In this document: positions 27,222 to 49,774 of the stretch, piece after piece
How positions within the stretch are numbered: position 1 is the first letter of the stretch
Layout: each line of letters starts with the position of its first letter
Assembly: GCF_056712565.1 (NCBI RefSeq)
Contig: NZ_CM160072.1
DNA length: 64,000 nt
Reading direction: 5' to 3' (one strand)
Translations under genes and position numbers: made by a program
The notes under the pieces: model-generated
What the model saw: the letters and a program-made list of their open reading frames with translations, nothing else
The model's database searches: none
What the model was told of the DNA's origin: nothing

Positions 27222-27374
27222 TTACTCGGATTCGTAAGCCGTGAAAACAGCAACCTCCGTCTGGCCAGTTCGGATGTGAACCTCACAGAGGTCTTTTCTC
27301 GTTACCAGCGCCGCCACTACGGCGGTGATACAGATGACGATCAGGGCGACAATCATCGCCTTATGCTGCTTCAT
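27222..27374 (-). CDS. hokC: Type I toxin HokC (Hok/Gef family membrane toxin)
   Basis: 50-codon frame MKQHKAMIVALIVICITAVVAALVTRKDLCEVHIRTGQTEVAVFTAYESE inside the 80-aa ORF. Confidence 0.88.
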   Translation of the reverse strand: MKQHKAMIVALIVICITAVVAALVTRKDLCEVHIRTGQTEVAVFTAYESE

Positions 27375-27431
27375 TGCTCTCTTCTCCTTGACCTTACGGT
27401 CAGTAAGAGGCACTCTACATGTGTTCTGCAT
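27222..27431 (-). CDS. mokC: MokC, overlapping reading frame that modulates hokC translation
   Basis: Same frame as hokC starting at the upstream Met (MQNTCRVPLTDRKVKEKRA...), as in characterised hok/mok loci. Confidence 0.6.
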   Translation of the reverse strand: MQNTCRVPLTDRKVKEKRAMKQHKAMIVALIVICITAVVAALVTRKDLCEVHIRTGQTEVAVFTAYESE

Positions 27432-27477
27432 ATAGGGGGCCTCGGGTTGATGGTAAAATATCACTCGGGGCTTTTCT
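27423..27477 (+). ncRNA. sokC: Putative SokC antisense RNA (approximate position)
   Basis: Placed only by analogy to hok/sok loci, where Sok is antisense to the mok start region; no promoter or terminator was convincingly identified in the sequence. Confidence 0.3.
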
Positions 27478-27985
27478 CTATCTGCCGTTCAGCTAATGCC
27501 TGAGACAGACAGCCTCAAGCACCCGCCGCTATTATATCGCTCTCTTTAACCCATTCTGTTTTATCGATTCTAATCCTGAAGACGCCTCGCATTTTTGCGT
27601 AATCAATCTTTAGTACATTGTTTATTTTAACTCTTATGTGCGTTTTCATTTACAAAAGTTGAGATTATGAACAAGAGGTTTAAGTTATGCCTGAATGGTG
27701 AGTTATTACTGGAGAAAGTAATAGAAGATACAAAATATTCTTGTACAGAATTGAATTTTCTTTTTGTGAGGAAAAATGTTTATAAATCAATGAGTGATAT
27801 TTAAAATCGACACACTTTTTGAAACACGATACCTCCACACCCGGGGGTAAAAGTAATCTGCGATCTCCATCACGCTTTGCCATTCACCTTTAAATATACT
27901 TTCTGAGTCGTTCTTAATCAAAATGAATTATCTGATGTATTGATTTCTATGGAACCATAAAAAAAATGAATGGAGAGCATATTAT

Positions 27986-28747
27986 ATGTCTGCCAAAAGA
28001 CGGCTTCTTATTGCGTGTGCCCTGACAACGATTTTCTATCACCTTCCTGCATATTCTTCATTAGAATATAAAGGTTCCTTTGGCTCAATAAATGCAGGTT
28101 ATGCTGACTGGAATAGTGGCTTCATTAACACTCATCGTGGTGAAGTATGGAAAGTGACTGCAGACTTTGGTGTGAATTTTAAAGAAGCCGAGTTTTACTC
28201 ATTTTATGAAAGCAATGTGCTTAACCATGCCGTAGCGGGGCGTAATCATACCGTTTCTGCTATGACACATGTCAGACTCTTTGACTCCAATATGACTTTC
28301 TTTGGCAAGATCTATGGTCAATGGGATAACTCATGGGGTGACGATCTTGATATGTTTTATGGTTTGGGCTACCTCGGCTGGAATGGTTCATGGGGGTTTT
28401 TTAAACCGTATATTGGATTACATAATCAATCTGGAGACTACGTCTCAGCCAAATATGGACAAACAAATGGCTGGAATGGTTATGTTGTTGGCTGGACAGC
28501 AGTATTACCTTTTACGTTATTTGACGAAAAATTTGTTTTATCTAACTGGAATGAAATAGAACTGGACAGAAATGATGCCTATGCGGAACAACAATTTGGT
28601 CGGAATGGGCTAAATGGCGGTTTAACAGTAGCCTGGAAGTTCTATCCTCGCTGGAAAGCCAGTGTGACGTGGCGTTATTTCGATAATAAGTTGGGCTACG
28701 ATGGTTTTGGCGATCAAATGATTTATATGCTTGGTTATGATTTCTAA
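27986..28747 (+). CDS. Tsx-family outer-membrane beta-barrel channel (nucleoside-specific-channel-like porin)
   Basis: 253-aa ORF with signal peptide, Trp/Tyr/Gly-rich composition, and C-terminus ...MLGYDF ending in Phe; local similarity to Tsx (LEYxxF near N-terminus, GYxF C-terminus). Good SD (GGAGAG) upstream. Confidence 0.7.
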   Translation: MSAKRRLLIACALTTIFYHLPAYSSLEYKGSFGSINAGYADWNSGFINTHRGEVWKVTADFGVNFKEAEFYSFYESNVLNHAVAGRNHTVSAMTHVRLFDSNMTFFGKIYGQWDNSWGDDLDMFYGLGYLGWNGSWGFFKPYIGLHNQSGDYVSAKYGQTNGWNGYVVGWTAVLPFTLFDEKFVLSNWNEIELDRNDAYAEQQFGRNGLNGGLTVAWKFYPRWKASVTWRYFDNKLGYDGFGDQMIYMLGYDF

Positions 28748-28766
28748 TTTTCATCAGGGAATAATT

Positions 28767-30260
28767 ATGCAGAAAACATTAATGGCCAGTTTGATCGGCC
28801 TTGCAGTTTGCACAGGGAATGCTTTTAATCCAGTCGTAGCTGCCGAGACTAAACAACCCAATTTAGTCATCATTATGGCGGATGATTTAGGCTATGGTGA
28901 TTTAGCAACATATGGACATCAGATCGTTAAAACACCCAATATTGACAGGCTTGCCCAGGAGGGCGTCAAATTTACTGACTACTATGCACCAGCTCCCTTA
29001 AGTTCTCCTTCGCGGGCGGGGTTATTAACGGGGCGGATGCCATTTCGTACCGGCATACGTTCATGGATCCCAACGGGAAAAGATGTGGCATTAGGGCGTA
29101 ATGAACTCACGATTGCTAATCTACTCAAAGCGCAAGGGTATGACACGGCCATGATGGGTAAGCTGCATCTGAATGCAGGCGGCGATCGCACCGATCAGCC
29201 GCAGGCAAAAGATATGGGCTTTGATTACTCACTGGTTAATACGGCGGGTTTTGTTACCGACGCCACGCTGGATAACGCTAAAGAACGCCCGCGTTATGGC
29301 ATGGTTTACCCGACAGGCTGGCTACGTAACGGGCAACCCACTCCACGAGCCGATAAAATGAGCGGTGAGTATGTCAGTTCGGAAGTCGTCAACTGGCTGG
29401 ATAACAAAAAGGACAGCAAGCCTTTCTTCCTCTATGTTGCTTTTACCGAAGTGCATAGCCCCCTGGCTTCGCCCAAAAAATACCTCGACATGTACTCACA
29501 ATATATGAGCGCGTATCAGAAGCAGCATCCTGATTTATTTTATGGCGACTGGGCAGACAAACCCTGGCGTGGTGTGGGGGAATATTATGCCAATATCAGC
29601 TATCTGGATGCACAGGTTGGAAAAGTGCTGGATAAAATCAAAGCGATGGGTGAAGAAGATAACACAATCGTTATTTTTACCAGTGATAACGGTCCGGTAA
29701 CGCGTGAAGCGCGCAAAGTGTATGAGCTGAATTTGGCAGGGGAAACGGATGGATTACGCGGTCGCAAGGATAACCTTTGGGAAGGCGGAATTCGTGTTCC
29801 AGCCATTATTAAATATGGTAAACATCTACCACAGGGAATGGTTTCAGATACACCCGTTTATGGTCTGGACTGGATGCCTACTTTAGCGAAAATGATGAAC
29901 TTCAAATTACCTACAGACCGTACTTTCGATGGTGAATCGCTGGTTCCTGTTCTTGAGCAAAAAGCATTGAAACGCGAAAAGCCATTAATTTTCGGGATTG
30001 ATATGCCATTCCAGGATGATCCAACCGATGAATGGGCGATCCGTGATGGTGACTGGAAGATGATTATCGATCGCAATAATAAACCGAAATATCTCTACAA
30101 TCTGAAATCTGATCGTTATGAAACACTTAATCTGATCGGTAAAAAACCAGATATTGAAAAACAGATGTATGGTAAGTTTTTAAAATATAAAACTGATATT
30201 GATAATGATTCTCTAATGAAAGCCAGAGGTGATAAACCAGAAGCGGTGACCTGGGGCTAA
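28767..30260 (+). CDS. Periplasmic sulfatase, Ser-type (formylglycine precursor is Ser)
   Basis: 497-aa protein with signal peptide (MQKTLMASLIGLAVCTG...), metal-binding IIMADDLGYGDL, and sulfatase signature PLSSPSRAGLLTG (S-x-P-x-R). Start set at the internal ATG with SD, 19 bp after the porin stop. Confidence 0.85.
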   Translation: MQKTLMASLIGLAVCTGNAFNPVVAAETKQPNLVIIMADDLGYGDLATYGHQIVKTPNIDRLAQEGVKFTDYYAPAPLSSPSRAGLLTGRMPFRTGIRSWIPTGKDVALGRNELTIANLLKAQGYDTAMMGKLHLNAGGDRTDQPQAKDMGFDYSLVNTAGFVTDATLDNAKERPRYGMVYPTGWLRNGQPTPRADKMSGEYVSSEVVNWLDNKKDSKPFFLYVAFTEVHSPLASPKKYLDMYSQYMSAYQKQHPDLFYGDWADKPWRGVGEYYANISYLDAQVGKVLDKIKAMGEEDNTIVIFTSDNGPVTREARKVYELNLAGETDGLRGRKDNLWEGGIRVPAIIKYGKHLPQGMVSDTPVYGLDWMPTLAKMMNFKLPTDRTFDGESLVPVLEQKALKREKPLIFGIDMPFQDDPTDEWAIRDGDWKMIIDRNNKPKYLYNLKSDRYETLNLIGKKPDIEKQMYGKFLKYKTDIDNDSLMKARGDKPEAVTWG

Positions 30261-30308
30261 CCTGATAATCATAATAAATGTAATGTATGCCATTTAGGGC
30301 TATGCCCG

Positions 30309-30345
30309 CCTGATTCAGTGCTACGCATTGAATCAGGTTCTTTTC
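30309..30345 (+). terminator. Rho-independent terminator after the porin-sulfatase pair
   Basis: CCTGATTCA-gtgctacgcat-TGAATCAGG perfect 9-bp stem followed by TTCTTTTCG. Confidence 0.65.
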
Positions 30346-30382
30346 GCGTTGAACAATATCAAGATACGGCTATTCGCAGGGA

Positions 30383-31648
30383 GTGGATATGTTTACCAAC
30401 GTAAATGTTGATTGTTGCAAAACACCAGGATGTAAAAACCTGGGGTTGCTGAATAGCCAGGATTATGTCGCACAGGGTAAAAATATTTTATGCCGTGAAT
30501 GTGGTTACTTGTTTCCAGTGATATCTGAACAGTCGCTTAATATTTATCGTAATATTGTGAATCACTCCTGGAGAGGTTTGATTTGCCAATGTTCAACTTG
30601 CGGAGGCACGTCCCTCAAAAAATATGGATATTCTGCACAAGGCCAGAGAAGAATGTATTGCCATCATTGTGAGAAAACATTTATCACTCTGGAACATGTA
30701 ATTACCACACCACGAGGAGCCCTGTTAGCATTGATGATTGAGCAAGGGGAGGCACTTGCGGATATCAGAAAGTCATTACTTCTTAACAGCACTGGACTTA
30801 GCCGTGAACTGTTAAAATTAGCGCGTGAAGCAAACTATAAAGAAAGTCGACAGTGTTTCCCAGCTTCTGATATTACCCTGAGTACCCGCGCTTTTCGCGT
30901 CAAGTATAATGGTAGCAATAACTCTCTTTATGCTCTTGTTACCGCAGAAGAACAAAGCGGCAGGGTGGTTGCCATCTCAACCAATTACTCCCCATCTGCC
31001 GTAGAGCAACATTATCAATACACATCGAACTATGAAGAGCGTATGTCTCCAGGGACGCTGGCACATCATGTCCAGCGCAAAGAGTTACTTACTATGCGGC
31101 GGGATACCTTGTTTGATATTGATTACGGCCCGGCAGTTTTACATCAAAACGATCCGGGAATGTTGGTAAAACCGGTTCTTCCGGCATATCGTCATTTTGA
31201 ACTGGTCAGAATACTGACCGATGAGCATTCCAACAACGTTCAGCATTACCTTGATCACGAATGCTTTATATTGGGCGGCTGCCTGATGGCTAATTTGCAG
31301 CATATTCATCAAGGTCGCTGCCATATTTCCTTTGTCAAAGAGCGCGGTGTGGCACCCGCCACCATTGATTTTCCACCGCGATTATTCCTTAGTGGTGGGG
31401 TACGAAATAATGTCTGGCGTGCATTTTCTAACCGCAATTATTCAATGGCTGTATGCAATCTCACTGGCAGTAAGAAAGTCCGCGAGATGCGGCATGCAAC
31501 ATTGAACAGTGCGACGCGTTTTATCCACTTTGTGGAGAACCATCCTTTCCTTATATCATTGAACCGAATGTCTCCTGCGAATGTCGTTTCTACATTAGAT
31601 ATCCTCAAACATCTGTGGAATAAAAAACTAGAGCATGGAACAATTTAA
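30383..31648 (+). CDS. Uncharacterised protein with two N-terminal InsA-like Cys4 zinc ribbons
   Basis: 421-aa ORF with SD (GGGAG); two C-x(n)-C...C-x2-C motifs (CCKTPGC...CRECG and CQCSTCG...CHHCEKTF) resembling the IS1 InsA zinc ribbon; remainder not recognised. Confidence 0.6.
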   Translation: MDMFTNVNVDCCKTPGCKNLGLLNSQDYVAQGKNILCRECGYLFPVISEQSLNIYRNIVNHSWRGLICQCSTCGGTSLKKYGYSAQGQRRMYCHHCEKTFITLEHVITTPRGALLALMIEQGEALADIRKSLLLNSTGLSRELLKLAREANYKESRQCFPASDITLSTRAFRVKYNGSNNSLYALVTAEEQSGRVVAISTNYSPSAVEQHYQYTSNYEERMSPGTLAHHVQRKELLTMRRDTLFDIDYGPAVLHQNDPGMLVKPVLPAYRHFELVRILTDEHSNNVQHYLDHECFILGGCLMANLQHIHQGRCHISFVKERGVAPATIDFPPRLFLSGGVRNNVWRAFSNRNYSMAVCNLTGSKKVREMRHATLNSATRFIHFVENHPFLISLNRMSPANVVSTLDILKHLWNKKLEHGTI

Positions 31649-31882: not shown

Positions 31883-33049
31883 GTGAAACATCTGCATCGA
31901 TTCTTTAGCAGTGATGCCTCGGGAGGCATTATTCTCATTATTGCCGCTGTATTAGCGATGATTATGGCCAACAGCGGTGCAACCAGTGGATGGTATCACG
32001 ACTTTCTTGAGACGCCGGTTCAGCTCCGGGTTGGGACACTTGAGATCAACAAGAACATGCTGCTATGGATCAATGACGCTCTGATGGCGGTATTTTTCCT
32101 GTTGGTTGGTCTGGAAGTTAAACGCGAGCTGATGCAAGGTTCGCTGGCCAGTCTGCGCCAGGCGGCATTTCCTGTTATTGCCGCAATCGGCGGGATGATT
32201 GTCCCGGCATTGCTCTATCTGGCTTTTAACTATGCCGATCCGATTACCCGCGAAGGCTGGGCAATCCCGGCGGCGACTGACATTGCCTTTGCACTTGGTG
32301 TGTTGGCGCTGTTGGGAAGTCGTGTTCCGTTAGCGCTGAAGATCTTTTTGATGGCTCTGGCTATTATCGACGATCTTGGGGCCATCATTATCATCGCATT
32401 GTTCTACACTAATGACTTATCGATGGCCTCTCTTGGCGTCGCGGCTGTAGCAATTGCGGTACTCGTGGTATTGAATCTGTGTGGTGTACGCCGCACGGGC
32501 GTTTATATTCTGGTTGGCGTGGTGCTGTGGACAGCGGTGTTGAAATCGGGGGTTCACGCAACCCTGGCTGGCGTCATTGTCGGCTTCTTTATTCCTTTGA
32601 AAGAGAAGCATGGGCGCTCTCCGGCTAAACGTCTGGAGCATGTTTTGCATCCATGGGTGGCGTATCTGATTTTGCCGCTGTTTGCATTTGCTAATGCTGG
32701 CGTTTCACTGCAAGGTGTCACGCTGGAAGGTTTGACCTCCATCCTGCCATTAGGGATCATCGCTGGTTTGCTGATTGGCAAGCCACTGGGTATTAGTCTG
32801 TTCTGCTGGTTGGCGCTGCGTTTGAAATTGGCACATCTGCCAGAGGGAACGACTTACCAGCAAATTATGGCGGTTGGTATCCTGTGCGGTATCGGTTTTA
32901 CTATGTCTATCTTTATTGCCAGCCTGGCATTTGGTAGCGTAGATCCAGAACTGATTAACTGGGCAAAATTAGGTATCCTTGTCGGTTCAATTTCTTCGGC
33001 GGTAATTGGATATAGCTGGTTACGCGTTCGTTTACGTCCATCAGTTTGA
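31883..33049 (+). CDS. nhaA: Na+/H+ antiporter NhaA
   Basis: 388-aa ORF with GTG start ([22 protein letters not shown]...); matches NhaA. Confidence 0.96.
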
Positions 33050-34014: not shown

Positions 34015-34061
34015 ACATTTGTACTTTGCAGGCCGAATTTTGGCCTGCAGATGGATATAAA

Positions 34062-34089
34062 AAAACCCGCCAGAGCGGGTTTTTTTACA
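34062..34089. terminator. Bidirectional terminator between convergent nhaR and rpsT
   Basis: AAAAAAACCCGC-cag-AGCGGGTTTTTTT symmetric hairpin with A-run and T-run flanks. Confidence 0.75.
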
Positions 34090-34109
34090 AAGCTGACAAC
34101 AACAGGCAA

Positions 34110-34394
<285 letters not shown>

Positions 34395-44476: not shown

Positions 44477-47400
44477 ATGCCAAAACGTACAGATATAAAA
44501 AGTATCCTGATTCTGGGTGCGGGCCCGATTGTTATCGGTCAGGCGTGTGAGTTTGACTACTCTGGCGCGCAAGCGTGTAAAGCCCTGCGTGAAGAGGGTT
44601 ACCGCGTCATTCTCGTGAACTCCAACCCGGCGACTATCATGACCGACCCGGAAATGGCTGATGCAACCTACATCGAGCCGATTCACTGGGAAGTGGTACG
44701 CAAGATTATTGAAAAAGAGCGCCCGGACGCGGTGCTGCCAACCATGGGGGGGCAGACGGCGCTGAACTGTGCGCTGGAGCTTGAGCGTCAGGGCGTGCTG
44801 GAAGAGTTCGGCGTCACCATGATTGGTGCCACTGCCGATGCGATTGATAAAGCCGAAGACCGCCGCCGTTTCGACGTAGCGATGAAGAAAATCGGTCTGG
44901 AAACTGCGCGTTCCGGTATCGCTCATTCAATGGAAGAAGCGCTGGCGGTTGCCGCTGAAGTTGGCTTCCCGTGCATTATTCGCCCATCCTTTACCATGGG
45001 CGGTAGCGGTGGCGGTATCGCTTATAACCGTGAAGAATTTGAAGAAATTTGCGCCCGCGGTCTGGATCTTTCTCCGACTAAAGAGCTGCTGATTGATGAG
45101 TCGCTGATCGGCTGGAAAGAGTACGAGATGGAAGTGGTGCGTGATAAAAACGACAACTGCATCATCGTCTGCTCTATCGAAAACTTTGATGCGATGGGCA
45201 TCCACACCGGTGACTCCATCACTGTCGCGCCAGCCCAAACGCTGACCGATAAAGAATATCAAATCATGCGTAACGCCTCGATGGCGGTACTGCGTGAAAT
45301 CGGCGTTGAAACCGGTGGTTCCAACGTCCAGTTTGCGGTGAACCCGAAAAACGGTCGCCTGATTGTTATCGAAATGAACCCACGCGTGTCTCGCTCCTCT
45401 GCGCTGGCGTCGAAAGCCACTGGTTTCCCGATTGCCAAAGTGGCGGCGAAACTGGCGGTGGGTTACACCCTCGACGAGCTGATGAACGACATCACCGGTG
45501 GGCGTACTCCGGCCTCCTTCGAGCCGTCCATCGACTATGTGGTTACTAAAATTCCTCGCTTCAACTTCGAGAAATTCGCCGGTGCTAACGACCGTCTGAC
45601 CACTCAGATGAAATCGGTTGGCGAAGTGATGGCGATTGGTCGCACGCAGCAGGAATCCCTACAAAAAGCGCTGCGCGGCCTGGAAGTGGGCGCAACTGGC
45701 TTCGATCCGAAAGTGAGTCTCGACGACCCGGAAGCGCTGACTAAAATCCGCCGCGAACTGAAAGATGCTGGCGCAGAGCGTATCTGGTATATCGCTGATG
45801 CCTTCCGCGCGGGCCTGTCTGTAGACGGTGTATTTAATTTGACCAACATTGACCGCTGGTTCCTGGTACAGATTGAAGAGCTGGTGCGTCTGGAAGAGAA
45901 AGTCGCAGAAGTGGGCATCACTGGCCTGCACGCTGAATTCCTGCGCCAGCTGAAACGCAAAGGCTTTGCCGATGCGCGTCTGGCAAAACTCGCGGGCGTG
46001 CGTGAAGCAGAAATCCGCAAGCTGCGCGACCAGTATGACCTGCACCCGGTTTACAAGCGCGTGGATACTTGTGCGGCAGAGTTCGCCACCGACACCGCTT
46101 ACATGTACTCCACTTATGAAGAAGAGTGCGAAGCGAATCCGTCCACCGATCGTGAAAAAATCATGGTGCTCGGCGGCGGCCCGAACCGTATCGGTCAGGG
46201 TATCGAATTCGACTACTGCTGTGTACACGCCTCGCTGGCGCTGCGCGAAGACGGTTATGAAACCATTATGGTTAACTGTAACCCGGAAACCGTCTCCACC
46301 GACTACGACACCTCTGACCGTCTCTACTTCGAGCCGGTAACTCTGGAAGACGTGCTGGAAATTGTGCGTATTGAGAAGCCGAAAGGCGTTATCGTCCAGT
46401 ACGGCGGTCAGACCCCGCTGAAACTGGCGCGCGCGCTGGAAGCTGCTGGCGTACCGGTTATCGGTACCAGCCCGGATGCCATCGACCGTGCGGAAGACCG
46501 TGAACGCTTCCAGCATGCGGTTGAGCGTCTGAAACTGAAACAACCGGCGAACGCCACCGTTACCACCATCGAAATGGCGGTTGAGAAAGCGAAAGAGATT
46601 GGCTACCCGCTGGTGGTGCGTCCGTCTTACGTTCTCGGCGGTCGGGCGATGGAAATCGTCTATGACGAAGCTGACCTGCGTCGCTACTTCCAGACAGCGG
46701 TCAGCGTATCTAACGATGCGCCAGTGTTGCTGGACCACTTCCTTGATGACGCAGTAGAAGTTGACGTGGATGCCATCTGCGACGGCGAAATGGTGCTGAT
46801 TGGCGGCATCATGGAGCATATTGAGCAGGCGGGTGTGCACTCCGGTGACTCCGCATGTTCACTGCCAGCTTACACCTTAAGTCAGGAAATTCAGGATGTG
46901 ATGCGCCAGCAGGTGCAGAAACTGGCCTTCGAACTGCAGGTGCGCGGCCTGATGAACGTGCAGTTTGCGGTGAAAAACAACGAAGTCTACCTGATTGAAG
47001 TTAACCCGCGTGCGGCGCGTACCGTTCCGTTCGTCTCCAAAGCCACCGGCGTACCGCTGGCAAAAGTGGCGGCGCGTGTGATGGCTGGCAAATCGCTGGC
47101 TGAGCAGGGCGTAACCAAAGAAGTTATCCCGCCGTACTACTCGGTGAAAGAAGTGGTGCTGCCGTTCAATAAATTCCCGGGCGTTGACCCGCTGTTAGGG
47201 CCAGAAATGCGCTCTACCGGGGAAGTAATGGGCGTGGGCCGCACCTTCGCTGAAGCGTTTGCCAAAGCGCAGCTGGGCAGCAACTCCACCATGAAGAAAC
47301 ACGGTCGTGCGCTGCTTTCCGTGCGCGAAGGCGATAAAGAACGCGTGGTGGACCTGGCGGCAAAACTGCTGAAACAGGGCTTCGAGCTGGATGCGACTCA

Positions 47401-47698
47401 CGGCACGGCGATTGTGCTGGGCGAAGCGGGTATCAATCCGCGTCTGGTGAACAAGGTGCATGAAGGCCGTCCGCACATTCAGGACCGTATTAAGAATGGC
47501 GAATATACCTACATCATCAACACCACCTCAGGTCGTCGTGCGATTGAAGACTCCCGCGTGATCCGTCGCAGTGCGCTGCAATATAAAGTGCATTACGACA
47601 CCACCCTGAACGGCGGCTTTGCCACCGCGATGGCGCTGAATGCCGATGCGACCGAAAAAGTAATTTCGGTGCAGGAAATGCACGCGCAGATCAAATAA
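44477..47698 (+). CDS. carB: Carbamoyl-phosphate synthase large subunit
   Basis: 1073-aa [36 protein letters not shown]... with duplicated ATP-grasp domains. Confidence 0.99.
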
Positions 47699-47751
47699 TA
47701 GCGTGTCATGGCGGATATTTTTCATCCGCTAATTTGATCGAATAACTAATA

Positions 47752-47778
47752 CGGTTCTCTGATGAGGACCGTTTTTTT
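47752..47778 (+). terminator. carAB rho-independent terminator
   Basis: CGGTTCTC-tgat-GAGGACCG stem followed by TTTTTTT. Confidence 0.75.
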
Positions 47779-48488
47779 GTGCACAGAAAACCCCCAGCTA
47801 GGCTGGGGGTTCCGGAAAGCTTTCAGCTTTGAGCCAGTTATTAAAACCCCTTTTGATTTGTTAAAACACCTTGCGGTCTGGCAACTGCAAGTGTCAAACA
47901 AGAAATCAAAAGGGGGTCCCAATGGGGAACGAAAAGAGCTTAGCGCACACCCGATGGAACTGTAAATATCACATAGTATTTGCGCCAAAATACCGAAGAC
48001 AGGTGTTCTACAGAGAGAAGCGTAGAGCAATAGGCTGTATTTTGAGAAAGCTGTGTGAGTGGAAAAGTGTACGGATTCTGGAAGCTGAATGCTGTGCAGA
48101 TCATATCCATATGCTTGTGGAGATCCCGCCCAAAATGAGCGTATCAGGCTTTATGGGATATCTGAAAGGGAAAAGCAGTCTGATGCCTTACGAGCAGTTT
48201 GGTGATTTGAAATTCAAATACAGGAACAGGGAGTTCTGGTGCAGAGGGTATTACGTCGATACGGTGGGTAAGAACACGGCGAAGATACAGGATTACATAA
48301 AGCACCAGCTTGAAGAGGATAAAATGGGAGAGCAGTTATCGATTCCCTATCCGGGCAGCCCGTTTACGGGCCGTAAGTAACGAAGTTGGATGCAAATGTC
48401 AGATCGTGTGCGCCTGTTAGGGCGCGGCTGGTAAGAGAGCCTTATAGGCGCATTTGAAAAACCTCCGGCTATGCCGGAGGATATTTAT
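47779..48488 (+). mobile_element. IS200-type insertion sequence (IS200/IS605 family); ends approximate
   Basis: Left-end perfect hairpin AAAACCCCCAGC-tagg-CTGGGGGTT, then a stem-loop (CCCCTTTTGATTT...AAATCAAAAGGGGG) sequestering the tnpA RBS, then a 152-codon tnpA and a right-end hairpin CCTCCGGC-tat-GCCGGAGG. Size about 0.71 kb. Confidence 0.75.
47922..48380 (+). CDS. tnpA: IS200 transposase TnpA (Y1 HUH transposase)
   Basis: 152-aa protein MGNEKSLAHTRWNCKYHIVFAPKYRRQVFY... with HUH motif (DHIHML) and catalytic Tyr region (RGYYVDTVG). Confidence 0.9.
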   Translation: MGNEKSLAHTRWNCKYHIVFAPKYRRQVFYREKRRAIGCILRKLCEWKSVRILEAECCADHIHMLVEIPPKMSVSGFMGYLKGKSSLMPYEQFGDLKFKYRNREFWCRGYYVDTVGKNTAKIQDYIKHQLEEDKMGEQLSIPYPGSPFTGRK

Positions 48489-48669
48489 TTGCCCATTAAG
48501 TAAATCTTTTGGGGAATCGATATTTTTGATGACATAAGCAGGATTTAGCTCACACTTATCGACGGTGAAGTTGCATACTATCGATATATCCACAATTTTA
48601 ATATGGCCTTGTTTAATTGCTGCAAAACGAGTCATAGCCAGTCTTTTAATTTGTGAAACTGGAGTTCGT

Positions 48670-49065
48670 ATGTGTGAAGGATGTGTTGAAAAACCACTCT
48701 ATTTGTTAATCGCCGAATGGATGATGGCTGAAAACCGGTGGGTGATAGCAAGAGAGATCTCTATTCATTTCGATATTGAACACAGCAAGGCGGTTAATAC
48801 CCTGACTTATATTCTGTCGGAAGTCACAGAAATAAGCTGCGAAGTTAAGATGATCCCTAATAAGCTGGAAGGGCGGGGATGCCAGTGCCAGCGACTGGTA
48901 AAAGTGGTTGATATCGATGAGCAAATTTACGCGCGCCTGCGCAATAACAGCCGGGATAAATTAGTCGGCGTAAGAAAGACGCCGCGTATTCCTGCCGTTC
49001 CGCTCACGGAACTTAACCGCGAGCAGAAGTGGCAGATGATGTTGTCAAAGAGTATGCGTCGTTAA
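48670..49065 (+). CDS. caiF: Carnitine operon transcriptional activator CaiF
   Basis: 131-aa protein MCEGCVEKPLYLLIAEWMMAENRWVIAREIS...; start set at the internal Met. Confidence 0.9.
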   Translation: MCEGCVEKPLYLLIAEWMMAENRWVIAREISIHFDIEHSKAVNTLTYILSEVTEISCEVKMIPNKLEGRGCQCQRLVKVVDIDEQIYARLRNNSRDKLVGVRKTPRIPAVPLTELNREQKWQMMLSKSMRR

Positions 49066-49097
49066 TGTCATTTCGTTGATACCGTGCGACCTGGTCG

Positions 49098-49180
49098 CTG
49101 GATGCGATGCTGGCGCATCTTATCCGGCCTACGGTTGCTTTACAGCCAGGTCGGATAAGGCGTTTATGCCGCATCCGACG
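49098..49180. repeat. REP element pair between convergent caiF and caiE
   Basis: GCTGGATGCGATGCTGGCGCATCTTATCCGGCCTAC and CAGGTCGGATAAGGCGTTTATGCCGCATCCGACG units. Confidence 0.7.
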
Positions 49181-49183
49181 ATG

Positions 49184-49774
49184 TTACCGTTTCGGCGTCA
49201 CATCCGTCGTCCCCTGCAAACGGGGGCGATTTTCCTCCATTTGCCTCAGTGGCTGCGTTTCATGTAACGCTGCATGACAGCGCCCGACAAGATCCTGATA
49301 CTCTTTGGTATTCAACCGTTTCCAGTGTAACTCGTCGTCACTCACGCTGCGTACAGCGCGGGCTGGCGTACCCATCAACAACTGGCGTTTCTCGCCGCGA
49401 AAGCCCGCTTTGACAAAGCTCATAGCGGCAACAATGCTCTCTTCGCCAATGACCGCGCCATCCATAATCACGCTGTTCATCCCGACCAGTGCATCGCGAC
49501 CAATCACACAACCATGCAGGATCGCTCCGTGCCCGATATGACCGTTTTCCCCAACGATGGTGTCAGTGTCGCAGTAGCCATGCATAATGCAGCCATCCTG
49601 AATATTGGCTCCCGCTTGCACGATCAACCGCCCGTAGTCACCACGCAGTGAGGCGAGTGGGCCGATGTAGACACCGGCTCCCACAATCACATCGCCAATC
49701 AATACTGCACTGGGATGGACAAACGCCGTCGGGTGAACAACCGGAATTAACCCCTCAAAGGCGTAATAGCTCAC
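49184..49774 (-). CDS. caiE: Carnitine operon protein CaiE (hexapeptide-repeat / gamma-carbonic-anhydrase-like)
   Basis: Translation ...[31 protein letters not shown]... with left-handed beta-helix repeats; GTG start 5 nt downstream of the caiD stop (the ORF-track ATG start would overlap caiD). Confidence 0.88.

Follow-up and report, generated by a model that had tools for sequence, protein, structure and literature searches.

An intact IS200C in the carB terminator of Escherichia coli, apparently inherited within the ST95 complex, upstream of an unchanged caiF promoter

The window analysed here, a stretch of 64,000 nucleotides, comprises carA, carB, caiF and the cai and fix genes of Escherichia coli. 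In this window the spacer between carB and caiF measures 971 bp (47699-48669) as opposed to 261 bp in K-12 MG1655 (34039-34299), and both lengths are as given in an initial annotation of the locus. This raises the question of what occupies the additional sequence, how it came to reside there, and whether it interferes with the control of caiF and hence of carnitine metabolism. In short, we consider it highly probable that the segment is an intact IS200C, which entered the site once in an ancestor of the ST95 complex through a preference for terminator-type targets, persists as a nearly silent passenger and has a small effect on caiF or none at all. The features discussed below are compiled in Table 1. 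Elsewhere in the window, three extra ORFs at 27986-31648 were scanned with PADLOC and NCBIfam, and no defence system was matched.

The inserted segment represents IS200C, a known tnpA-only insertion sequence from the IS200 group of the IS200/IS605 family; the copy is intact and complete with 711 bp and lies on the + strand in the same orientation as carB. The 710 bases that were called first are 100% identical to many copies annotated as IS200C in complete E. coli genomes, so that a chance match can be dismissed. In RefSeq, identical copies bear the PGAP label 'IS200/IS605-like element IS200C family transposase', with TnpA deposited as WP_000526115.1, and an IS200C copy is present at a query coverage of at least 80% in 2,063 of 5,426 complete E. 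coli genomes. The traits of the family, i.e. a length of about 0.7 kb, tnpA as the sole long ORF and the lack of tnpB, are all present. Moreover, each hallmark by which the initial annotation had recognized an IS200-type element was recovered, namely hairpins at both ends, a stem-loop at the ribosome-binding site and a TnpA of 152 aa. The ends of IS200C, GTGCACAG... and ...ATATTTATT, do not form inverted repeats, and a subterminal hairpin is located at either end.

The exact boundaries were set by direct string comparison; a MAFFT alignment of the window with K-12 misplaced the large gap. The empty site of K-12 reads GGACCG-T9-GCCCATT, while the junctions in the window read GGACCG-T7, followed by GTGCACAG...GGAGGATATTTAT and by TT-GCCCATT, and with K-12 as the empty site an insert of 710 bp (47779-48488) is obtained. 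The best match to the reconstructed empty site is provided by B2 strains (CFT073, 536, Nissle 1917, LF82, E2348/69 and others), which agree at 399 of 400 positions. Since CFT073 features 8 T at this site and its flanks equal those of the window after one T is dropped, the ancestral run comprised 8 T and the insert comprises 711 bp; the 8 T of CFT073 correspond to 7 T, the element and 1 T in the window, and thus nothing was duplicated. The right ends of related copies in other genomes point to the same boundary, as 44 of 47 follow the consensus CCTCCGGCTATGCCGGAGG-ATATTTATT and stop at ...GGAGGATATTTATT, with any base coming next. On the basis of the closest empty sites with 8 T and of this consensus, the 710-bp estimate was replaced by 711 bp, so that the left end of the extent first proposed (47779-48488) stands, whereas its right end fell one base short of 48489. 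Owing to the T-run, the element could formally be placed at 47777-48487 or 47778-48488 just as well. Alignment to an uninterrupted carB-caiF region, the check that the initial annotation had put forward, thereby fixed both the ends and the target, and the segment is indeed bounded by IS200 ends.

Both the terminator scan and the empty sites, which contain the same hairpin, bear out the earlier placement of the element directly behind the carB terminator, with the insertion point located inside its T-run. To the left of the insertion the terminator retains its hairpin and 7 T, with the stem ending 6 nt before the element, and in K-12 and CFT073 the same carB hairpin is followed by 9 T and 8 T, respectively. 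On the other side, 180 bp separate the element from the ATG of caiF at 48670, matching the distance of about 180 bp initially noted. The order carB-tnpA-caiF-caiE is likewise annotated at the locus of strain NU14.

Table 1. Coordinates of IS200C and of the neighbouring carB and caiF features in the window
Feature	Coordinates	Strand	Basis
carB, carbamoyl-phosphate synthase large subunit, 1073 aa; stop codon ends at 47698	44477..47698	+	ORF; NU14 RefSeq annotation of the identical locus
carB intrinsic terminator, stem-loop 47751-47772 (9 bp) and T-run; integration target	47751..47778	+	Terminator scan; empty sites
IS200C, no target duplication	47779..48489	+	Identity to annotated copies; empty-site comparison; right-end consensus
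Left-end subterminal hairpin, AACCCCCAGC-TAG-GCTGGGGGTT	47789..47811	+	Folds; nt 11-33 of the element
Antisense sRNA art200, expected position	47842..47932	-	Approximate; homology only
Stem-loop pairing with the ribosome-binding site	47847..47915	+	RNA fold; nt 69-137; within the Rfam match
tnpA, Y1 HUH transposase, 152 aa	47922..48380	+	Pfam PF01797; structure alignment
Interior imperfect palindrome of the right end, TGCGCCT...AGGCGCA	48409..48452	+	DNA fold
Right-end subterminal hairpin, CCTCCGGC-TAT-GCCGGAGG, and 9-nt tail ATATTTATT ending the element	48462..48489	+	Terminator scan; DNA fold; consensus
CRP/FNR-type site CAGGATTTAGCTCACA, centre 48546.5 = -41.5	48539..48554	+	Motif scan, 7/10 consensus positions
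TG and TACTAT, -10-like hexamer (48576-48581), with inferred caiF start 48588	48572..48588	+	Sequence; reported start position
caiF, 131 aa, intact	48670..49065	+	ORF; CaiF WP_000333104.1

The structured regions of the element closely follow those described for IS200. The left-end hairpin is perfect over 10 bp and represents the presumed binding site of TnpA; its exact 21-mer recurs in at least 120 stretches from other genomes, and the hairpin at nt 12-34 of the published IS200 has been described as a bidirectional terminator (Ellis 2015, PMC4513863). Further downstream, the stem-loop found here by folding agrees with the structure mapped to nt 69-138 of IS200, which sequesters the Shine-Dalgarno sequence (Ellis 2015, PMC4513863). 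The RNA fold of the first 167 nt of the element scores z = -5.5 against shuffled controls, and the Rfam family STnc490 (RF01405) matches positions 47789-47912 with 146 bits at a gathering score of 56. The antisense RNA art200, about 90 nt long and with 5' ends reported at nt 153/154 (Ellis 2015, PMC4513863), would be expected to overlap this region. At the opposite end, the DNA fold of 48381-48500 yields z = -3.4, and the hairpin at 48462-48480 consists of an 8-bp GC-rich stem followed by ATATTTATT, which appears terminator-like on both strands. In addition, the A-runs AGAAAA and GAAAAA stand 5' of the two hairpins while both cleavage points come after T-rich sequence, which, by analogy with IS608, would render an A-to-T guide pairing at the ends of IS200C plausible.

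With respect to its distribution, the insertion was traced by junction queries, each composed of 80 nt of flank and 80 nt of element and run for either side, and among 5,426 complete E. coli genomes each junction was recovered from 128. Among the 60 occupied genomes listed are UTI89, S88, APEC O1, IHE3034, UM146, NU14, PMV-1, APEC O18 and IMT5155, as well as 'ST95-32', poultry isolates of the types O1:K1:H7 and O2:K1:H4, and the type strain ATCC 11775. Several of the listed strains are classical members of the sequence-type complex 95 (PMC4232414), and the specificity for ST95 is judged from these 60 strain names out of the 128 occupied genomes. The match to the junction query is single in most of the 60. 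The carB-caiF site is empty in other B2 strains and in every other phylogroup sampled. Nissle 1917 and ATCC 25922 were considered as carriers and discarded, given that their site is empty and their 100% identical IS200C copies are situated elsewhere.

Because both junctions are equally frequent and the listed genomes derive from one clonal complex, the simplest reading appears to be a single insertion in the ancestor of the ST95 complex that was inherited thereafter, which is consistent with the notoriously low transposition frequency of IS200 (Ellis 2015, PMC4513863). An empty site by itself does not prove prior absence, since excision of IS200/IS605 elements is precise and leaves no scar (PMC5027513), and the element might conceivably have been ancestral at the site and been lost from most E. 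coli rather than gained in one lineage. Such a history is scarcely credible, however, in view of an occupancy of just 128 of 5,426 genomes with the listed carriers confined to one clonal complex, of the empty sites in the other B2 strains and all other sampled phylogroups, and of the 100% identity to copies at other loci in other strains, which indicates a recent arrival; the low transposition frequency reported for IS200 likewise counts against an ancestral element lost by excision (Ellis 2015, PMC4513863). Both the element and its insertion between carB and caiF are already annotated in public genomes (UTI89, S88, APEC O1 and others). Judged from the 60 names, the junctions 47778/47779 and 48489/48490 provide a simple marker of the ST95 complex among complete E. 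coli genomes.

The inherited copy still encodes what appears to be a complete transposase. TnpA matches the Pfam family Y1_Tnp (PF01797) over residues 11-129 with E=2.2e-36, and solved TnpA structures of the IS200/IS605 family can be aligned to it over its length. Its residues H61-I62-H63 align to the DHIH of the PDB entries 2ec2 and 2f4f and constitute the HUH motif, while Y125 and Q129 are located in the C-terminal helix and fall on the catalytic tyrosine helix of solved TnpA structures; further structures matched are 2a6m (IS608), 2vhg and 2xm3, with E-values from 1e-15 to 1e-17. Substitution of this tyrosine, Y125F, served Ellis 2015 (PMC4513863) as the IS200 transposase mutant devoid of catalytic activity. 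The single junction-query match in most of the genomes listed implies no apparent spread since the lineage arose, and transposition of native IS200 was undetectable in the assay of Ellis 2015 (PMC4513863), both of which would also fit a dead relic devoid of mobility. We regard a relic as quite improbable, because the tnpA ORF is full length and retains HUH, Y125 and Q129, neither the ends nor any of the structured regions are damaged, identical copies reside at many other loci, and the low activity of IS200 was attributed to repression of tnpA and not to decay of the element (Ellis 2015, PMC4513863). According to published work on IS200, transposase expression is kept low by a weak tnpA promoter, by the terminator formed by the left-end hairpin, by sequestration of the ribosome-binding site and by the antisense RNA art200. 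The IS200C studied here is probably a nearly silent passenger.

The position of the insertion invites a comparison with other IS200-type copies. A search with the exact left-end hairpin 21-mer, in which each species was represented by one genome, yielded 124 left junctions with 116 unique flanks, which originate from Yersinia pestis (IS1541), Vibrio, Brenneria, Edwardsiella and Pluralibacter as well as from metagenome-assembled genomes labelled Oxalobacter, Mailhella/Desulfovibrio, Bacillota, Peptococcaceae, Elusimicrobiaceae and Saccharibacteria. In 93 of the 116 unique flanks (80%) the boundary is preceded by a perfect GC-rich hairpin whose end lies at most 12 nt away, compared with 468 of 3,000 random 50-mers (15.6%) and 385 of 3,187 runs of at least 5 T elsewhere (12.1%), both drawn from the same loci. 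Most of the 23 flanks without a perfect hairpin exhibit imperfect ones by eye. At least 4 T occur within the last 6 nt of 112 of the 116 unique flanks but in only about 5% of random windows; the boundary was defined by the first TTG, which forces flanks to end in 'TT' and makes that one feature circular. The carB flank of the window, with its 9-bp stem ending 6 nt from the element, constitutes a typical case. Hence, a target choice for terminator-like sites, i.e. a GC-rich hairpin and a T-run ending in TT, explains the position behind carB: the element landed there on account of the terminator, and closeness to caiF is a mere consequence.

Part of the enrichment of terminators at left flanks could nevertheless reflect the survival of harmless insertions instead of target choice. 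The pattern as such is not new, as a preprint (10.1101/2025.07.22.666184; 2025-26) has already described terminator-like sequences enriched upstream of IS200/IS605 elements, where they were read as limiting transposase expression and not as the target. As to the basis of a target choice, we tentatively entertain, though we would rather bet against it, that terminators on single-stranded DNA, with their GC hairpin and a T-rich tail ending in TT, mimic the right end of IS200-type elements, which likewise consists of a hairpin and ATATTTATT, and that TnpA reads them as a surrogate end. Such mimicry would account for the position in the carB terminator, for terminators at 80% of the left junctions in several phyla and for head-to-tail pairs of IS1541 in Yersinia pestis, in which one copy begins exactly after the right end of another.

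In the IS200/IS605 family one strand is excised as a circle, and the model of transposition requires the lagging-strand template (PMC5027513). The GC skew is positive on the + strand throughout the window, from which it follows that the + strand, comprising the terminator hairpin, the T-run and the active strand of the element, is the lagging-strand template. Judging by the mechanism of the family, the ancestor of the ST95 complex would have acquired IS200C once by single-strand 'peel and paste' transposition, in which a circular single-stranded intermediate would have integrated into the T-run of the carB intrinsic terminator, whose hairpin and T-run on the carB sense strand would here be part of the lagging-strand template. 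Integration would have proceeded without target duplication and left the element oriented as carB. The carB site serves as a clean and datable example of terminator choice by IS200-type elements, a preference that would allow them to persist harmlessly between genes.

It remains to be considered whether the control of caiF is affected by its new neighbour. In the 1996 work of Eichler, the caiF start was reportedly placed 82 nt before the ATG, with a CRP motif at -41.5, an extended -10 and no -35; accordingly, we take position 48588 of the window, likewise 82 nt before the ATG, to be the putative start of transcription. CAGGATTTAGCTCACA is the sole CRP-like match in the K-12 spacer, and its centre at 34176.5 lies exactly at -41.5 from 34,218. 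This spacing, together with an anaerobic sigma-70 ChIP peak at K-12 34,197 (Myers 2013, supplement), corroborates this start. The right end of the element at 48489 thus corresponds to -99, and the CRP/FNR site, the -10 and the start are located 47-99 bp downstream of the element. From 60 nt before the caiF start through +5 the sequence is identical to K-12, while 400 bp of flanks, including the whole 180-bp region upstream of caiF, are the same as in CFT073 apart from the T-run. What was shifted away is confined to the part beyond -99, comprising the carB terminator and the 3' end of carB. Moreover, caiF, caiE, caiD, caiC, caiB, caiA, caiT, fixA, fixB and fixC are full-length ORFs, and the CaiF accession WP_000333104.1 is common to NU14, where the site is occupied, and CFT073, where it is empty.

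Hence, the insertion is situated neither within nor between mapped promoter or operator elements of caiF. The initial proposal that the element may displace or insulate caiF regulatory sequences finds no support in the mapped elements, all of which are found downstream of -99 and unchanged relative to K-12; the converse, an insertion outside the caiF promoter elements, holds for every mapped element from the CRP/FNR site to the start. A consensus scan of both strands over 47600-48750 detected no sigma-70-like site, and thus no outward-facing promoter at the ends of the element, although this evidence is weak since the same scan also misses the real caiF promoter, which features no -35. With the insertion, the right-end hairpin and its T-rich tail would replace the carB terminator as the last terminator-like structure before caiF.

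A rewiring of caiF would still be conceivable if an upstream site, be it an FNR site near the carB stop or a site of H-NS or NarL, had been moved by 711 bp, or if the added terminators blocked read-through from carAB; in either case, ST95 strains would differ in how they induce the carnitine pathway. An FNR ChIP-seq peak centred at 34,059-34,065 (Myers 2013) precedes the insertion point (~34,119) by about 55 bp and the -41.5 site by about 115 bp, and was considered as an upstream site cut off by the element; it was set aside because the authors of the same study put the best site at -41.5, the top-scoring FNR site for caiF, and no FNR-like motif matching at least 7 of 10 positions is present near the peak centre. 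The sites of the repressors H-NS and NarL at caiF are unmapped, so that an upstream one could now be 711 bp further away; a NarL site could not be located at caiF (PMC2718512). As for read-through, hairpins resembling terminators do exist at both ends of IS200C, but caiF was already insulated by the carB terminator before the insertion. Considering further that the CRP-like site, the -10 and the start are all found beyond the right end of the element and show no difference from K-12, that caiF, caiTABCDE and fixABC are intact, and that the 400-bp flanks with the 180-bp caiF upstream region are unchanged relative to CFT073, rewiring of caiF appears unlikely.

Since the caiF promoter is unchanged from -99 to +1, the effect of IS200C on carnitine regulation is expected to be small or nil, and a disturbed carnitine regulon is not supported by anything in the sequence. 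A literature search returned no caiF expression data for an insertion-bearing strain and nothing relevant on IS200 in connection with caiF or carB, or on caiF in ST95 strains. If caiF regulation were altered after all, this would point towards a lineage-specific change in anaerobic carnitine use of a major extraintestinal pathogen.

Compared with known systems, the element itself does not differ from IS200 of Salmonella enterica and IS200C of E. coli, with which it shares the length (about 707-711 bp), a single tnpA of 152 aa with Y125, the left hairpin (nt 11-33; published as nt 12-34), the stem-loop at nt 69-137, the STnc490/art200 match and the right hairpin, as well as the lack of inverted repeats and of a target duplication; only its location in the carB terminator of the ST95 complex is particular. 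IS1541 of Yersinia pestis likewise possesses the left-hairpin 21-mer, an identical right hairpin with the ATATTTATT tail and a position after a hairpin and T-run, while its left end reads GTGCCCAG in place of the GTGCACAG of the window. Moreover, IS1541 accounts for dozens of junctions in the Y. pestis genome, including tandem pairs, whereas one IS200C copy resides in the window and the match is single in most of the ST95-complex genomes listed. More distantly, IS608 of Helicobacter pylori and ISDra2 share a homologous Y1 HUH TnpA, subterminal hairpins, an orientation consistent with the lagging-strand template and insertion 3' of a short conserved target without duplication. On the other hand, these two elements carry tnpB and recognise TTAC or TTGAT, whereas IS200-type elements such as the one described here are devoid of tnpB and are found after a hairpin and T-run.

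The left-end hairpin of the IS200C copy contains a 21-mer, CCCCAGCTAGGCTGGGGGTTC, that recurs without mismatch in at least 120 stretches (loci L003-L122) from species-representative genomes. Among the matches listed, the sources comprise Enterobacterales, Vibrio and metagenome-assembled genomes; in the last group the matches are often located at contig ends, and these genomes are labelled as Oxalobacter, Mailhella/Desulfovibrio, Bacillota, Peptococcaceae, Elusimicrobiaceae and Saccharibacteria. This identity across phyla is unusually strict for the end of a mobile element, and the metagenome assemblies are possibly contaminated.

Positions of the features in the window
Feature	Position	Strand	Detail
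sok (sok/hokC locus)	27372-27524		
Three co-oriented ORFs	27986-31648		253, 509 and 421 aa; in a stretch of GC 0.43
388-aa ORF	31883-33049		
Centre of the caiF FNR ChIP-seq peak	~47719-47725		K-12 34,059-34,065
Left-end 21-mer CCCCAGCTAGGCTGGGGGTTC	47792-47812		
Right-end hairpin with flanks	48456-48489		
Rfam matches Ysr202 and STnc490	48457-48648 / 48460-48595	- / +	
naRNA4 matches	49040-49210		39.8 and 27.9 bits; gathering score 59.5

The right-end hairpin region yielded two weak Rfam matches, one to the Yersinia sRNA Ysr202, which at 32 bits lies far under the gathering score and whose alignment covers the terminal hairpin only, and one to STnc490 (20 bits). The latter arises because the two hairpins of the element resemble each other, the left end reading CCCCCAGC-TAG-GCTGGGGG and the right end CCTCCGGC-TAT-GCCGGAGG. 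In the Mailhella-type variants at loci L059 and L075, both flanks of the right-end hairpin are altered jointly: the bases on its 5' side are GGGGGAA / GAGGAA, whereas E. coli and Yersinia carry GAAAAA, and those on its 3' side are GGCCCCATT / GGCCCCTTT as opposed to ATATTTATT. This joint change is compatible with a pairing of the cleavage-proximal tail with the stretch 5' of the hairpin.

In Yersinia pestis NCTC5923, copies of the relative IS1541 are paired head-to-tail at three loci (L078 ~349, L079 ~2660 and L081 ~12604). The left end of one copy, GTGCCCAG..., lies immediately 3' of the right end of another, ...CCGGAGGATATTTATT, and thus the right end of the earlier copy served as the target of the next. 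These pairs suggest that the right-end hairpin with its T-rich tail may mimic the terminator-like target.

The carB-caiF site of E. coli FY26 (NZ_CP101741.1, 2990647-2994137) holds a truncated IS200C comprising the first 339 nt, followed on its 3' side by a repeat that begins with GATCGAATAACTAATACGGTTCTCTGATGAG, which is the carB terminator sequence. Beyond this repeat lie a second left end and a full tnpA. Either the site has been rearranged locally or the arrangement is an artefact of the assembly.

With respect to caiF regulation, the centre of the FNR ChIP-seq peak is located shortly past the carB stop codon (Myers 2013) and upstream of the IS200C insertion point. The -41.5 site of the caiF promoter, which the same study assigned to FNR, lies ~115 bp downstream of this centre. 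At the peak centre itself, no FNR-like motif with at least 7/10 matches was found.

Elsewhere in the window, a low-GC stretch between the sok/hokC locus and the 388-aa ORF harbors three ORFs, whose products are a PRK11528-like protein, a member of the sulfatase family and a protein that bears a transposase-like zinc-binding domain; a PADLOC scan of the three returned no match. From the gene order of K-12, the 388-aa ORF would correspond to nhaA, and the three ORFs are unexpected at this position.

Finally, the caiF-caiE gap contains two sub-threshold matches to naRNA4, which represents REP-type repeats. REP elements constitute the other class of hairpins that is bound by relatives of the Y1 transposases.
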